Shown: positions 1 through 37,544, numbered from the stretch's first letter. The stretch: DNA of 64,000 nt from an uncultured virus (IMG/VR IMGVR_UViG_3300017783_000009) (IMGVR_UViG_3300017783_000009); one strand, 5' to 3'. Numbers and translations are program-made. The notes: generated from the sequence alone by a model not told the origin.

Positions 1-120
1 ATAAGCATAAAGACGAGCAGCTGAATCTTCATCCAATGTTTTCTGTCCATTTGTGTCAAATAGACGTAATTTTAAATTAGCGCCTTTTAATATATTAAAA
101 AGTTCTTCTGCTAGAGTCAT
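1..120 (-). CDS. Hypothetical late protein, 5' part only (MTLAEELFNILKGANLKLRLFD...), runs off the window edge
   Basis: ATG at 120 preceded by AAGGAG and a GATAAATA motif (139-146); frame open to position 1; not in the ORF track. Confidence 0.75.
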   Translation of the reverse strand, partial: MTLAEELFNILKGANLKLRLFDTNGQKTLDEDSAARLYAY

Positions 121-12318: not shown

Positions 12319-12347
12319 ACTATATAGTAAGATATCTTACTTGTCAA
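12319..12347 (-). promoter_or_regulatory. Sigma70-type early promoter
   Basis: TTGACA-N17-TATAGT with an A-rich UP element. Confidence 0.85.
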
Positions 12348-12366
12348 CCTTTTTTTTAATTATTTT

Positions 12367-12751: not shown

Positions 12752-13738
12752 TTACATAGCTACTTTTGATTTTTCTTCAATTTGGCGTTCAAATTCTCTT
12801 AAACGTCTATATACACTCATTAATTCAATAATTGTAGGCCACGCTTTAAGTAAATATTGCATACTACCTTCAACACGACCAAATGCACGTATAATTTGTT
12901 GCATTACACCTAATGTAATTGCACCTGTTACAATTGCCGGTGCTAAGAATACATAGGCACTTAGCACATTTGCTTGTAAATATGCAATACGACCCACATT
13001 AAAGTAAAGATAACGTATATAACTTAAAAAGTGTATACTACGCACCCCATCAAACAATTCTTCAATTGATTTAGGACGAATTTTTTCATCGTCTTCTGCA
13101 ATCACTAGAATTTTTCGATAAGCGGCTTCTTTCTTTTGTAAATCATATTCGATTCCAACTAAACGAAATGCCCATCCTAATCCAATAAGGAATAGTGTGC
13201 CACCTATACTCCAAAGTAGAGCACCTGTAACAAGTCCATATTGCCATTCTCCAAAGAACATAATAGTTAGTCCTGCACTTAGTCCTAATAAAATTGGAAC
13301 AAACTGAATAAGAATCATTATTGCTTCGATGAAACTTGTTCCAAGTCCTTCCATGATACGACTAAATTTAATCGTATCTTCTTGTACCCTTTGTGCGGCA
13401 CCTTCTATGGTTCTTGCTTTATCATATACACTATGATACCACTCTACCATAGCCGTTCTCCAACGGAATAGATAATGAGCTGTAAAGAAACTTACTATCA
13501 CAGCAATTAGTACATATATACCTGCTAGATATATAAATTCAATTAAACTACTCCAATATTCACCCATAGTAATTGCATTTGGTGTGGCTAGTGCTTTTTG
13601 AATCATATCGTAAAACGTTCCAAACCATTCATTGATTTTTACATCAATTTCTACTTGAACCCATAGTGAACTTAAAATTGCAGCTGACCCTAGCCAACTC
13701 CATAACCACCATTTTCGGTTCTTAAAAAACCTAAACAT
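12752..13738 (-). CDS. sbmA: SbmA/BacA-family inner-membrane peptide transporter
   Basis: INEWFGTFYDMIQKAL, HYLFRWRTAM, IEGAAQRVQEDT, QKKEAAYRK, ELMSVYRRL; multiple TM helices. Confidence 0.85.
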   Translation of the reverse strand: MFRFFKNRKWWLWSWLGSAAILSSLWVQVEIDVKINEWFGTFYDMIQKALATPNAITMGEYWSSLIEFIYLAGIYVLIAVIVSFFTAHYLFRWRTAMVEWYHSVYDKARTIEGAAQRVQEDTIKFSRIMEGLGTSFIEAIMILIQFVPILLGLSAGLTIMFFGEWQYGLVTGALLWSIGGTLFLIGLGWAFRLVGIEYDLQKKEAAYRKILVIAEDDEKIRPKSIEELFDGVRSIHFLSYIRYLYFNVGRIAYLQANVLSAYVFLAPAIVTGAITLGVMQQIIRAFGRVEGSMQYLLKAWPTIIELMSVYRRLREFERQIEEKSKVAM

Positions 13739-34301: not shown

Positions 34302-34850
34302 TTATTTTTTGAATAAATTGTATACTTTTTCATGCCATTCTACACCAGGATGTGCATTATCATTGCCTAATTTATCATTTGGTATACAGTTAACATCTGT
34401 GCTATACAAACGTATATTTTTTATTTCACAAAAACTTTGTAATAATAATTTGTTTTTTTCATAATTATATTGATCGCTATAATCATTGATCAGTTCTGCA
34501 CTTGCTTTATGCCATACATAATTTTTTGATCCAGGATCAAATGCTTTAAACTTTAAAAATGTTCCAGTATCATCAACAACTTCTCTACGATTTTTAAAAG
34601 TCCACATTACATATATTTTTCCAGGACTATACTTGTTACAATACTCTATTGCAGTTCTGCATATTTTATCATTACTAGCACCATTTAATCCACAATTAGC
34701 TATGTTAAGTAAAAAGCTCCAAGTTTGATCAGCATACACACCTACACCTTCTGTAAAACTACAACCAAATGAAGCAGATACACCGTTATCAAAATCAATA
34801 AGTGATCTAAAGTTATCCGATGTAGGGGGATTCCAATTATTAAAATACAT
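34302..34850 (-). CDS. Second SGNH/GDSL-like hydrolase; start refined to MYFNNW
   Basis: FGCSFTEG, NCGLNGAS, DNAHPG. Confidence 0.75.
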   Translation of the reverse strand: MYFNNWNPPTSDNFRSLIDFDNGVSASFGCSFTEGVGVYADQTWSFLLNIANCGLNGASNDKICRTAIEYCNKYSPGKIYVMWTFKNRREVVDDTGTFLKFKAFDPGSKNYVWHKASAELINDYSDQYNYEKNKLLLQSFCEIKNIRLYSTDVNCIPNDKLGNDNAHPGVEWHEKVYNLFKK

Positions 34851-34856
34851 ATCTCT

Positions 34857-34885
34857 ATTATACAACTTTTAGATTTACAAGTCAA
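34857..34885 (-). promoter_or_regulatory. Sigma70-type promoter
   Basis: TTGACT-N17-TATAAT. Confidence 0.85.
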
Positions 34886-34886
34886 T

Positions 34887-34913
34887 AAAAAACCCCACCG
34901 AAGTGAGGTTTTT
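34887..34913 (-). terminator. Intrinsic terminator with cUUCGg tetraloop
   Basis: AAAAACCUCAC-UUCG-GUGGGGUUUUUU. Confidence 0.9.
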
Positions 34914-35087
34914 AAAAGTGGGCAAAGGATACCACCCTCTAAAGACGCACCGACAAAACTTGGTTCTGCTAACTGTCATCTTACCTGCCTGCACCCGCTA
35001 AGGCGAACCGCTAAGTTCCTTTGGCATTGCCTTAGTTCCGCTTTGTTAGAACTTATTCGGCCAACCCGTATAACAACGTCTTGTTAT
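34887..35087 (-). ncRNA. Candidate ~200-nt structured non-coding RNA, family not recognised
   Basis: GC-rich island bounded by its own sigma70 promoter and UUCG terminator; several helices; no convincing ORF. Confidence 0.7.
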
Positions 35088-35093
35088 GTTACT

Positions 35094-35122
35094 AATATAA
35101 CAAAGTTATACCAGGATGTCAA
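35094..35122 (-). promoter_or_regulatory. Sigma70-type promoter of the candidate ncRNA
   Basis: TTGACA-N17-TATATT with an A-tract UP element. Confidence 0.8.
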
Positions 35123-35142: not shown

Positions 35143-35700
35143 TTAAATGTTATTAATAAATTGTTCTAGATCGTTTGGCAGAACAGGATTTTCCATTCTC
35201 TCTGGATGCCAAACTATACCCCATACTTTATTAATATTATGTTTGAATGCTTCAATGTCACCTTCTTTTGTGATAGCAGTAGGTAAAAATCCCTCTGCTA
35301 ATTTTAAAATTTTGTTTTGATGATAGCTGTTTACTACAACAGATTTATTATCCATTGTAACTTCATGTTCCGTTTTATAATGATCCTCACATTCTATATT
35401 AATACCTTCTTCAAGTTGATTAATTAAAAATGCTCCGTGGCAAACTCCTAGTACAGGTTTTTTTTGTTTATAACACTCGGTAAGTAGTCTTATTTCTGTT
35501 ATTATCCTAGGACTACTCGCATCGCCACCTGTAAAGATTACCATGTCTAAGTCTTTGATTACATTAGAAAAATCTTGTTCTGGATTGTTTGCTATATTAA
35601 AAAGCGTATGATCGCTTAGTAGGTTGTACCAACCATGTTCTAAACAATCATACGCAAAATCATTGTAATGGAATATGCGTTGCGTTAACCCAATATTCAT
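35143..35700 (-). CDS. Class I glutamine amidotransferase / peptidase C26-like (gamma-glutamyl hydrolase)
   Basis: FTGGD, GVCHG (catalytic Cys), VNSYH, WHPE. Confidence 0.88.
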   Translation of the reverse strand: MNIGLTQRIFHYNDFAYDCLEHGWYNLLSDHTLFNIANNPEQDFSNVIKDLDMVIFTGGDASSPRIITEIRLLTECYKQKKPVLGVCHGAFLINQLEEGINIECEDHYKTEHEVTMDNKSVVVNSYHQNKILKLAEGFLPTAITKEGDIEAFKHNINKVWGIVWHPERMENPVLPNDLEQFINNI

Positions 35701-35712
35701 TACAATTAATCC

Positions 35713-36414
35713 TTACCAACCGTAAGCTTCATTAACTAGTTCACGTGAACCAGATGCTTCAACTGTGTTTTCACATGAAACTTCGAATAGGTCTTTTCTC
35801 ATACCGTCAACGATTTTTGTTACGTGTGCTTGAACTTCTGGTGTAGTTGCAATTGATTCTAATTTCATTGCACCAATAGTTGAATGGAATCCTTCGTCTT
35901 TAGCAATTTTAGCATATGACTTTGCAATGAATGAATCTTCAATTGTTTCTGCCATTTGTGACCATACTGCTGCCGCACGACCTTCTGCAACGATTTGATA
36001 TACAGCTAGAGCTGCTGGATCTTCTGCCGCTTCATATGCGTCTAGTAGATCTGCACCTTTAGCTTGTGGCTTAGCCGCTTCTTTTGCCATAGCATCAGCA
36101 ACGTCTAGTTCTTCGCCAGTGATTTTTTCGATGCATTCTTTTACCATACGGAAGTGAATTGCTTCGTCCATCGCTTGCTTTGAAAGGTTTTGTAATTCAA
36201 CAGGATCTGCATCAGCTGGCATGTTAGCCACTTGTGCTGAAATCTCAACCATGTTCATTCTTTCGTTAACCATACGTCCAGTGAAATGCTCAACTAGAGC
36301 TTCCATTGAATTGTCTTTTGACTCAAAGTATGCTTTAACGTTCATTTTTGAAGCTGTGAAAAGTGCTTCGTTGTCTTTTTGTAGCTGTGCTACAAATTCA
36401 GTTGATGTAGTCAT
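35713..36414 (-). CDS. Ferritin-like di-iron four-helix-bundle protein; start refined to MTTSTE
   Basis: E...DEAIH...E...DEGFH carboxylate/His ligand pattern; GGAG RBS. Confidence 0.8.
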   Translation of the reverse strand: MTTSTEFVAQLQKDNEALFTASKMNVKAYFESKDNSMEALVEHFTGRMVNERMNMVEISAQVANMPADADPVELQNLSKQAMDEAIHFRMVKECIEKITGEELDVADAMAKEAAKPQAKGADLLDAYEAAEDPAALAVYQIVAEGRAAAVWSQMAETIEDSFIAKSYAKIAKDEGFHSTIGAMKLESIATTPEVQAHVTKIVDGMRKDLFEVSCENTVEASGSRELVNEAYGW

Positions 36415-36584
36415 TGTAATATTCTCCATTTTGACTTAATGTAAGTTTACTTTTGTAAACCATGAATAAAACATTTATTTTTAATGAATAAATGAGTCAC
36501 ACCCTTTAATATAACAACTCTGTTATAATCAGTGTAAACCATCATTGATGATGTAGCACAACTCTGTGCTACACCATTATTTAT

Positions 36585-37544
36585 CTAAAGCCCGTTTGGA
36601 ACAATTATATAATGAATTGTTAGCACAACACCAACTGATGCTGCAAGTCCAATCATCATTTTAAAGAAGTCACGTGTAACAAGTGGAAACACTGTTTTAA
36701 ACTTGTGCTTGCCTGTCATTGTTGCCATAGCTAATTCTCTACCACATAGCAAACCAACAAACACCCAAGTCGTTGACATAGGAATATCATTTAGCTCTTT
36801 GAAGAACCAAAGTATTAACCAATATACTAAATCAATTATTGTAGCACTTCTTACATATCTTGTATTGTGTTTTTCAATGACAATATTTTGTATTTTGCCT
36901 CCACCTTCTCGAAACATAAAATAAAGTCCACCAACAAATATTAAACTTACTAATACCATTAAATCCCAAGGAATTTGACGTGGTAAAAATACAGCAATAT
37001 TTGCCATATCATGTGACAACCAAGTAAACCACAACAATCCTGTTGTTATCCATTGTCCAATGCGCCACAAATGTTTGTGTTCTTCTTTAACTGGCTTTGC
37101 TTCGTTGAGTAACTTGCTTACTACAAGCCAAATGGTGTAAGCTGCAACTGCGGCTACTGCATATCCCATCATAGATTTCATTAGCATTTTTTCTAGCACA
37201 AATGTACTTGCAAATGCACTCAATACTAGGAAACTTGTACTAACTGGTACACCTATCCTTGTAAGTATTAGTAATAGTCCAGGCGCCATTGCATGGTACC
37301 ATTTTATTTCTTGAAAAGGTATTTTATTTAAGCGTCCATAACTAATGTCGCCTCCGTTCATATACCACCCATACCAAAGTGTATATATTAAAACCGCTGA
37401 AGCAGCGGCCCACATTGTTCTCCAATGAAATTTTTCGTTGTTTGATGCAATCCAAGTGCCCAACGTTTGCACCGAATCATTTGCTATAACTGCATAGGCC
37501 GCAAATAAAAAGCCTACCAGCATCCATACTGTGAGTAGTTCCAT
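36585..37544 (-). CDS. Polytopic membrane protein, probable PiT/PHO4-family phosphate transporter
   Basis: Two GANDxAN-like signatures (IANDSVQ, LSHDMAN) and paired PVSTS/PMSTT motifs. Confidence 0.65.
   Translation of the reverse strand: MELLTVWMLVGFLFAAYAVIANDSVQTLGTWIASNNEKFHWRTMWAAASAVLIYTLWYGWYMNGGDISYGRLNKIPFQEIKWYHAMAPGLLLILTRIGVPVSTSFLVLSAFASTFVLEKMLMKSMMGYAVAAVAAYTIWLVVSKLLNEAKPVKEEHKHLWRIGQWITTGLLWFTWLSHDMANIAVFLPRQIPWDLMVLVSLIFVGGLYFMFREGGGKIQNIVIEKHNTRYVRSATIIDLVYWLILWFFKELNDIPMSTTWVFVGLLCGRELAMATMTGKHKFKTVFPLVTRDFFKMMIGLAASVGVVLTIHYIIVPNGL

Follow-up and report, generated by a model that had tools for sequence, protein, structure and literature searches.

ROOL and GOLLD are large, intricately folded non-coding RNAs of phages and prophages, several hundred nucleotides in length, often free-standing and of unknown function. 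Both form RNA-only nanocages, and both are named in a preprint (10.64898/2026.07.01.735769) according to which RNAs of the manA family also form RNA-only assemblies in vitro, as 8-, 10- and 60-mers, by way of the kissing loops L5-L7', L8-L9' and L3-L8' together with a GNRA-receptor contact; the accessible text of the preprint assigns manA no role in vivo. Since 2010, manA has been carried as a cis-regulatory riboswitch candidate with no ligand in the accessible parts of the papers concerned (PMC2864571, PMC9964418), and the literature searched held nothing further on its function in cells beyond that status.

The RNA described here lies in a 64,000-nucleotide stretch of DNA from an uncultured virus (the whole of the stretch analysed, hereafter the window), in which an initial annotation had flagged a stand-alone RNA gene. 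The gene is genuine, and its folded RNA is a shortened member of the manA family. Sequence comparison establishes its homology to manA, the conservation of its fold and the conservation of a cassette made up of promoter, RNA and terminator, and the product is probably a stand-alone, early, non-coding RNA of the manA type. It resembles ROOL and GOLLD in being phage-borne, folded and non-coding, and is unrelated to both in sequence and fold; Rfam returned no match to either in the window.

The manA-type RNA and its carrier

The window corresponds to the structural region of a T4-like myovirus, with genes for terminase, sheath, portal, prohead protease, gp15-like and baseplate proteins. The capsid proteins closest to its own, at 65-70% identity, come from Sinorhizobium phage Phosso, Vibrio phage 2.275.O and the Pseudomonas PA5oct group. 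The carrier is an uncultured marine T4-like giant phage and not a cyanophage. When the RNA unit, its 1.4-kb neighbourhood and a canonical relative were used as blastn queries, GenBank phages gave no DNA-level match to the region, and four 30-nt GenBank matches of the unit were discarded as terminator-like chance matches. Elsewhere in the window (12752-13738) there is a phage-borne gene for an SbmA/BacA-like inner-membrane transporter (Pfam PF05992, 457 bits).

The RNA unit occupies a gene-free stretch of 255 nt on the minus strand, between a gene for an amidotransferase-like protein and one for a protein of 187 aa (Table 1). The latter protein had no match in Pfam, PHROG or the PDB, and its gene is present only in the window's closest relatives; its N-terminal GCSFTEG and C-terminal DNAHPG recall what we take to be blocks I and V of the SGNH hydrolases. 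The gene has no evident Shine-Dalgarno sequence and the -10 element of a second promoter ends 6 nt before ATG 34850, such that the gene would be leaderless, or its TTG start would lie inside the promoter. On the other side, three genes that separate the capsid gene from the RNA (35143-37544; a 319-aa membrane protein, a 238-aa protein and the amidotransferase) are missing there in the related loci L009 and L010, and this segment looks like an island of accessory genes. The 238-aa protein has a weak match, below the cut-off (E 0.0016), that is ribonucleotide-reductase-small-chain-like.

Table 1. Features of the RNA unit and the genes on either side of it, in window coordinates.
Feature	Position	Strand	Remark
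Upstream gene, class-I glutamine amidotransferase / peptidase C26-like	35143..35700	-	outside the RNA unit
Sigma70-type promoter: -35 TTGACA (35122-35117), 17-nt spacer, TG-extended -10 TATATT (35099-35094)	35094..35122	-	
Predicted start A35087 and 5' hairpin AUAACAA-GACG-UUGUUAU	35070..35087	-	manA model positions 1-16
manA-type RNA body, 172 nt	34915..35086	-	full-length RF01745 match; R1 match
Closing helix GGGU (35067-35064) / GCCC (34923-34920)	34920..35067	-	around all inner domains
Domain with junction GAAUAA, hairpin GUUCU/GGAAC, conserved CUAAGG and outer helix GCC/GGC	35029..35061	-	
Reduced central domain: stem UGCC/GGCA, hairpins GAAC-UUAGCG-GUUC and GC-CUUAGCGGGU-GC	34986..35026	-	
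Two-tier stem with outer helix AAGAUG/CGUCUU	34942..34982	-	interior contains ACCA
Last hairpin AGAGG-GUGGUAU-CCUUU	34924..34940	-	loop UGGU complementary to ACCA of the preceding domain
Intrinsic terminator AAAAACCUCAC-UUCG-GUGGGGUUUUUU (GUGGGG) and U6	34887..34913	-	
Separate sigma70-type promoter TTGACT-17-TATAAT, serving the next gene	34857..34885	-	kept in L149, L152 and L153
Downstream gene, 187 aa (TTG 34865) or 182 aa (ATG 34850)	34302..34865	-	outside the RNA unit

The sole Rfam match at E<=0.05 in the 64 kb is to manA (RF01745), with 35.7 bits and E=1.5e-5 (E 1.4e-7 over a 601-nt region), and it is full-length, running over model positions 1-192 of 192. This score lies below the RF01745 gathering cut-off of 55.2, as do those of the other four short copies described below (37.9-43.2), and at its curated thresholds Rfam gave no match in the window; as such, routine annotation will miss the short form. 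R1, a covariance model of our own that was built with the Rfam structure from two near-identical sequences (L082 and L083), scores the window RNA at 41 bits (E 2e-11). Rfam rows for istR, RNAI and rsmX align mainly to the terminator hairpin, far below their cut-offs, and were rejected, and ARAGORN found neither tRNA nor tmRNA in the window.

The window RNA has in common with the manA family the 5' GACG hairpin, the GGG...CCC closing helix, the GAAUAA junction, a hairpin followed by UAAGG, the CAGGUA motif, the two-tier stem and a last hairpin ending in ...AUCC, and also its occurrence in a marine phage and a promoter that abuts the 5' hairpin, as in P-SSM2. It differs from canonical manA in three places. 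In the center, the stem is kept and carries two short hairpins with other loops instead of three; the canonical central hairpins (loops GUGGUG, GNRA-like and ACCA) are absent, and the central inserts measure 9/9/14 nt against 12/16/18 in the manA model. The last loop has 7 nt rather than 11, and the 4-nt CUU segment after GAAUAA is missing: the manA junction GUG-N-CUGAAUAA-N-CUU reads UUGGCCGAAUAA in the window, with GAAUAA kept, GUG and CU altered and CUU absent. Furthermore, the window RNA appears to be closed by a constitutive terminator and is followed by a separate promoter, unlike the manA family as described, which is a 5' UTR element. A manA member of 173 nt was already present in the 2010 seed alignment (PMC2864571 supplement), and thus short forms as such are not new. 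What is new is this particular below-threshold short form, together with the count of cassettes, which are the rule in the giant-phage group and the exception in cyanophage-type loci.

Relatives and conservation of the fold

Relatives were sought in 80 IMG/VR loci fetched around relatives of the capsid gene. Rfam identified manA in six of the seven loci tried first, with 79.9 bits in L082, 78.6 in L083 and 55.7 in L069, and in 10 of 11 later ones, where L094, L108, L087, L010 and L009 score 57.8-85.4 bits; the scores of L042, L050 and L046, which belong to the first set, fall just below 55.2. R1 gave 16 matches in 81 sources, the window included. A first pattern scan recovered only the phage itself, and a pattern for the shared 5' element recovered 58 viral stretches, with all of the 57 loci searched matching R1. 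A loose first-look search missed manA in G001, the nearest record, whose sequence is identical, so a "no match" from that search does not amount to absence, and the same applies to its "no match" for Vibrio phage 2.275.O.

The relatives link the short form to the canonical one. In L087, L100 and L108 the first 27 nt are identical to the window RNA and the sequence then continues as canonical manA, L087 and L108 scoring 79-81 bits in Rfam, above the 55.2 cut-off. In L134 the short form of the window recurs at about 83% identity (43.2 bits), again behind a promoter of its own; the site is the canonical one, with the capsid gene on one side and a freshwater-2 leader on the other. The terminator stem in L134 is entirely different in sequence and still paired. 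Three further short copies of about 95% identity (L149, L152 and L153) came from a metagenome pattern, nine of whose 12 hits had no R1 match and were dropped as chance; in L153, another gene (239 aa) stands between the amidotransferase-like gene and the RNA.

Across the five short copies the manA-like fold is paired in 255 of 255 cells with seven compensated pairs, three in the body and four in the terminator, against 44-50% of cells and 0-1 compensated pairs in slid controls; these five sequences amount to two effective lineages and themselves served, in part, to derive the fold. The closing helix is paired in 20 of 20 cells, with G-C/G-U and U-A/U-G changes, and the outer helix AAGAUG/CGUCUU in 30 of 30, with one U-G -> C-G change. 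Two of the four pairs in the central stem are compensated (UGCC/GGCA -> UACU/AGUA, by G-C -> A-U and C-G -> U-A), as is one pair of the outer helix GCC/GGC (C-G -> U-A in L134); the GUUCU/GGAAC helix is invariant. The 5' hairpin is likewise invariant in the five copies, and its helix covaries across the wider group, in which the closing helix changes from GGGU/ACCC to AUAG/CUAU with 4/4 pairs compensated. For 15 distinct RNAs of that wider group, in an alignment that was fitted to the manA model, 94.2% of cells are paired under the family structure, with compensation at 45 of its 52 pairs; slid controls gave 39-48% of cells and 12-22 compensated pairs. A MAFFT alignment of the divergent members was unusable for structure, and noise made a search for covariation among unpaired columns unusable.

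The same comparisons bear on what else the RNA might be. The initial annotation had suggested a 6S-like decoy of RNA polymerase, on the strength of the size and of a rod with a central bubble, and had noted a loose resemblance of the 3' segment to RNase P RNA. Like 6S RNA, the unit has its own sigma70 promoter and a size of about 200 nt, and the rod can indeed be drawn in the single window sequence, where all of the listed pairs are standard. However, the rod does not hold up in relatives: in the five copies none of its pairs outside the terminator is compensated, 14 cells are broken, and the change of G57 to A in L134 breaks CUAAGGC/GCCUUAG, yet is compensated in the manA helix. The 6S, RNase P, SRP and tmRNA models found no match at E<=10 in the 601-nt region, the only Rfam match being to manA, to which the RNA is homologous, and we consider a 6S-like or RNase P-like identity highly improbable. 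That the locus instead encodes a small protein is scarcely credible. Both of the internal ORFs concerned (9 aa and 34/39 aa) exist in the window, and the three closest relatives retain the shorter one; at the start of the 34-aa ORF all four relatives have ACG, a stop follows after 3-4 codons, and in L134 the 9-aa ORF has TTA in place of its start and an early stop. Substitutions follow base pairing and not codons. The check for conserved ORFs that the initial annotation had named thus found neither of them conserved, an outcome that favors an RNA.

A promoter-RNA-terminator cassette

The promoter of the unit, TTGACA-17-TATATT, matches at 11 of 12 positions, with TG before the -10 element and an A-rich stretch upstream, and the -10 element ends 7 nt before A35087, where the GACG hairpin begins. 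At the other end, the terminator hairpin has a dG of -8.0 kcal/mol with a T6 run (calculated with our own script), and its pairs have a mean probability of 0.90 in the equilibrium ensemble of the whole window transcript; a simple terminator scan did not list this hairpin. The GC fraction over the unit is 0.45-0.47 against 0.26-0.38 in the flanks, and the next gene has a promoter of its own. Since promoter, start-proximal hairpin, GC-rich body, UUCG terminator and second promoter are all present, the observation in the initial annotation was correct. Taken alone, each single feature is weak and could arise by chance: the window has 8 instances of the promoter pattern where 4.3 would be expected, and the fold z-score of the unit is only -1.67. 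The unit stands above chance because promoter, RNA and terminator recur together in distinct relatives, as detailed below.

The AAAAGGTTGAC head of the RNA promoter is found again at 12343-12353, ahead of a protein gene. At this second site (12319-12353), the promoter head AAAAGGTTGACA...TATAGT precedes a gene of 124 to 130 aa with a good ribosome-binding site. The recurrence supports the idea that this head represents the early-promoter type of the phage.

Among 46 distinct full-length RNAs of the giant-phage group, 44 were analyzed (L107 and L132 were dropped for short flanks). A TTGACN-16..18-TANNNT promoter lies just upstream in 43 of them, its -10 element usually ending 7-8 nt from the RNA (range 7-22), and a hairpin with a T-run follows the RNA motif by 22-43 nt in all 44. 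The stems of these terminators differ freely in sequence between copies, and their pair probability is >=0.90 in every one of the 44 full transcripts. No pairing that competes with the terminator was found in any of these RNAs by equilibrium folding, which is no test of a kinetic or ligand-driven antiterminator. Antiterminators picked out by eye (CCCAC/GUGGG and GAGG/CCUC) pair in the window and are lost in L134, L153 and L082, and were rejected. After the terminator, 36 of the 44 have the sequence [TG]ATAAATA, which we take to resemble the T4 late-promoter box TATAAATA; a sigma70-type promoter occupies this place in the window and in L149, L152 and L153.

The genes around the RNA vary from copy to copy. 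In L009 and L010 the order is capsid gene, sometimes a glutamine riboswitch, manA, and lastly genes for homologues of the 196-aa and 1069-aa proteins encoded in the window. Compared with this order, three additional genes precede the RNA in the window and one follows it. In L082 and L134 manA is followed by a freshwater-2 leader and a gene whose product starts MGRPVNKR. Several loci show a run of structured RNAs after the capsid gene (L082 7233-7772, L083 4502-4857, L069 7666-8313, L010 2935-3335 and L134 1497-1819), in the order glutamine riboswitch aptamer (47-49 bits), manA cassette and freshwater-2 RNA (41-75 bits), the last of which ends in AAGGAGAAAACAAAUG and leads into the MGRPVNKR gene. 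Neither the glutamine riboswitch nor freshwater-2 has a match in the window at E<=0.05.

A contrast set of 80 cyanophage-type loci was collected with the family consensus junction, of which 37 were analyzable, 43 rows being set aside for short flanks or for want of a recognizable 3' end; R1 gave only 12 matches in 81 cyanophage-type sources, and these loci were analyzed by pattern anchors instead. Under the same criteria, a promoter is present in 26 of the 37 and a terminator in six; six more carry a long AGACC...GGUCU hairpin with a U-run that the terminator criterion missed. In Prochlorococcus phage P-SSM2, whose manA scores 181.6 bits, TTGACA-16-TATAAT ends 8 nt before the RNA, which itself ends 15 nt before purL with no terminator. 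Promoters thus occur in both sets and the terminator mainly in the giant phages, such that the promoter is a trait of the family and the closed cassette is typical of the giant-phage group. Just after the 3' end of manA, eight cyanophage-type loci (L171, L173, L182, L200, L205, L206, L216 and L236) carry AGACCUAAGAUGCAACU...GGGCAGAUGGUCU and then a U-run, an element that could represent a further structured RNA or a long terminator. In S-CREM1 an abiF sRNA is listed about 100 nt after manA (PMC9964418).

These arrangements are the natural place to consider manA in the window as a cis-acting riboswitch or leader, in which a ligand-sensing fold would set read-through into the 187-aa gene and beyond. 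Rfam and Weinberg et al. 2010 (PMC2864571) class manA as a cis-regulatory riboswitch candidate, and such a role accords with the 187-aa gene lying on the same strand 37 nt past the U-run, with P-SSM2, where the same promoter placement is followed by purL and no terminator, and with the 31 of 37 cyanophage-type loci that have no terminator by the criteria used. In the giant-phage group, however, nothing pairs in competition with the terminator in any of the 44 RNAs, and variation in the terminator sequence is not tied to the conserved 3' part of the RNA. All copies examined have a separate promoter for the following gene, and that gene is not the same one throughout: it is p187, a homologue of p196 or, preceded by a freshwater-2 leader of its own, the MGRPVNKR gene. 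We therefore regard a cis-acting role in the window as unlikely.

One metatranscriptome run (X1) contains this phage. In it, a contig of depth 79 reaches from beyond 35700 to 34990 and so spans the promoter and roughly 100 nt at the start of the RNA, next-gene contigs have a depth of 3.8 and 34864-34957 is without contig cover. Data of this kind are assembled contigs, which give neither ends nor levels and hold one depth per contig that cannot rank genes. The X1 contig could stem from upstream read-through or from DNA present in the library, and the contigs neither prove nor refute a discrete RNA. In runs X3, X5 and X7, from different studies, contigs of relatives with 95-99% similarity cover the amidotransferase gene (35143-35700) at depths of 75-723. 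The notion that metatranscriptomes with a small share hold only the small RNA was wrong; the three examined contain only the amidotransferase gene of relatives.

It might be argued from the X1 contig that the RNA is a 3' end element of the upstream operon, serving to stabilize or end the glutamine-amidotransferase mRNA, with the promoter incidental. The contig is unbroken from the amidotransferase gene into the RNA, next to the far shallower contigs of the following gene, and no terminator lies between the stop codon at 35143 and the RNA. However, a single depth figure per contig cannot order genes by expression, and the promoter recurs in 43 of 44 copies whatever stands upstream, be it the capsid gene, a glutamine riboswitch, a 66-aa ORF or the 239-aa gene. 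A plain terminator, moreover, needs no covarying fold of 172 nt, and this explanation seems to us distinctly improbable.

The reading that we favor, and consider probable, is of a free-standing non-coding gene for a shortened manA RNA that is started by sigma70, terminated and active as a separate molecule. Host sigma70 RNA polymerase would start at about A35087, early in infection, as the promoter sequence suggests, and the transcript, predicted at about 200 nt, would fold in the manA manner, with the 5' GACG hairpin and a closing helix around four domains, the central one reduced to two hairpins. Folding and comparison suggest that transcription would then stop constitutively at the intrinsic terminator, with no competing structure. 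The product would act as a separate molecule and not as the leader of the next gene, because the terminator is unopposed and the next gene has its own promoter. The stand-alone character proposed in the initial annotation is in this respect supported by the comparison of relatives, with promoters in 43/44 and unopposed terminators in 44/44.

Loop contacts and possible assembly

For a manA-type RNA acting as a free molecule, the most likely mode would be self-association or the binding of a partner. Relative to the manA assemblies described in the preprint (10.64898/2026.07.01.735769), the window RNA belongs to the same family and keeps a loop complement, UGGU/ACCA, and is without the canonical central hairpins taken as L5-L7; here L8 and L9 are equated with the last two hairpin loops, and L5-L7 with the central hairpins, by helix order. 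The two-tier stem and the last hairpin (GGUA...AAUCC) of canonical manA carry complementary loops, the contact marked "pseudoknot?" in the figure legend of 2010 (PMC2864571). In our alignments many members of the family show this complementarity between the loops of the last two hairpins, which covary (CUGUAG/UACAGG, AGGAUU/AAUCCU, CUGAU/AUCAG and GGUAU/AUACC). Over 43 distinct pairs, a loop pairs better with its own partner than with foreign loops (mean -3.80 vs -2.55 kcal/mol, Wilcoxon p=1.4e-6, a figure that is no true probability because the sequences are related and two entries are duplicated). In the window the 4-bp UGGU/ACCA duplex has -4.3 kcal/mol, and 5 of 39 foreign loops do as well; L134 has no loop-loop complement (-2.3 kcal/mol, with 31 of 41 foreign loops doing as well). 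For the central loops of canonical members taken as L5-L7, own and foreign partners gave -2.79 vs -2.47 kcal/mol, which is not significant (p=0.35, n=16), and the second loop pair of the manA family has no counterpart in the short form.

It is tempting, if doubtful, to combine these elements into a single proposal, that a minimized manA RNA made from an early promoter, having given up the central kissing-loop module and retained one loop-loop contact, might form in the infected cell an RNA-only oligomer, smaller or of another kind, that would hold or sequester a component of host or phage. If this were true, manA would be a trans-acting structural RNA and not a riboswitch, and its short and canonical forms would provide a natural deletion series for the loops that build cages.

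The short form itself shows which parts of the manA fold are dispensable. The giant-phage group deploys manA as a promoter-to-terminator cassette among late structural genes in 44 of 44 cases, which argues that manA works as a free molecule, at least in this group, and the cassette of these phages gives the cage idea a concrete setting in vivo.
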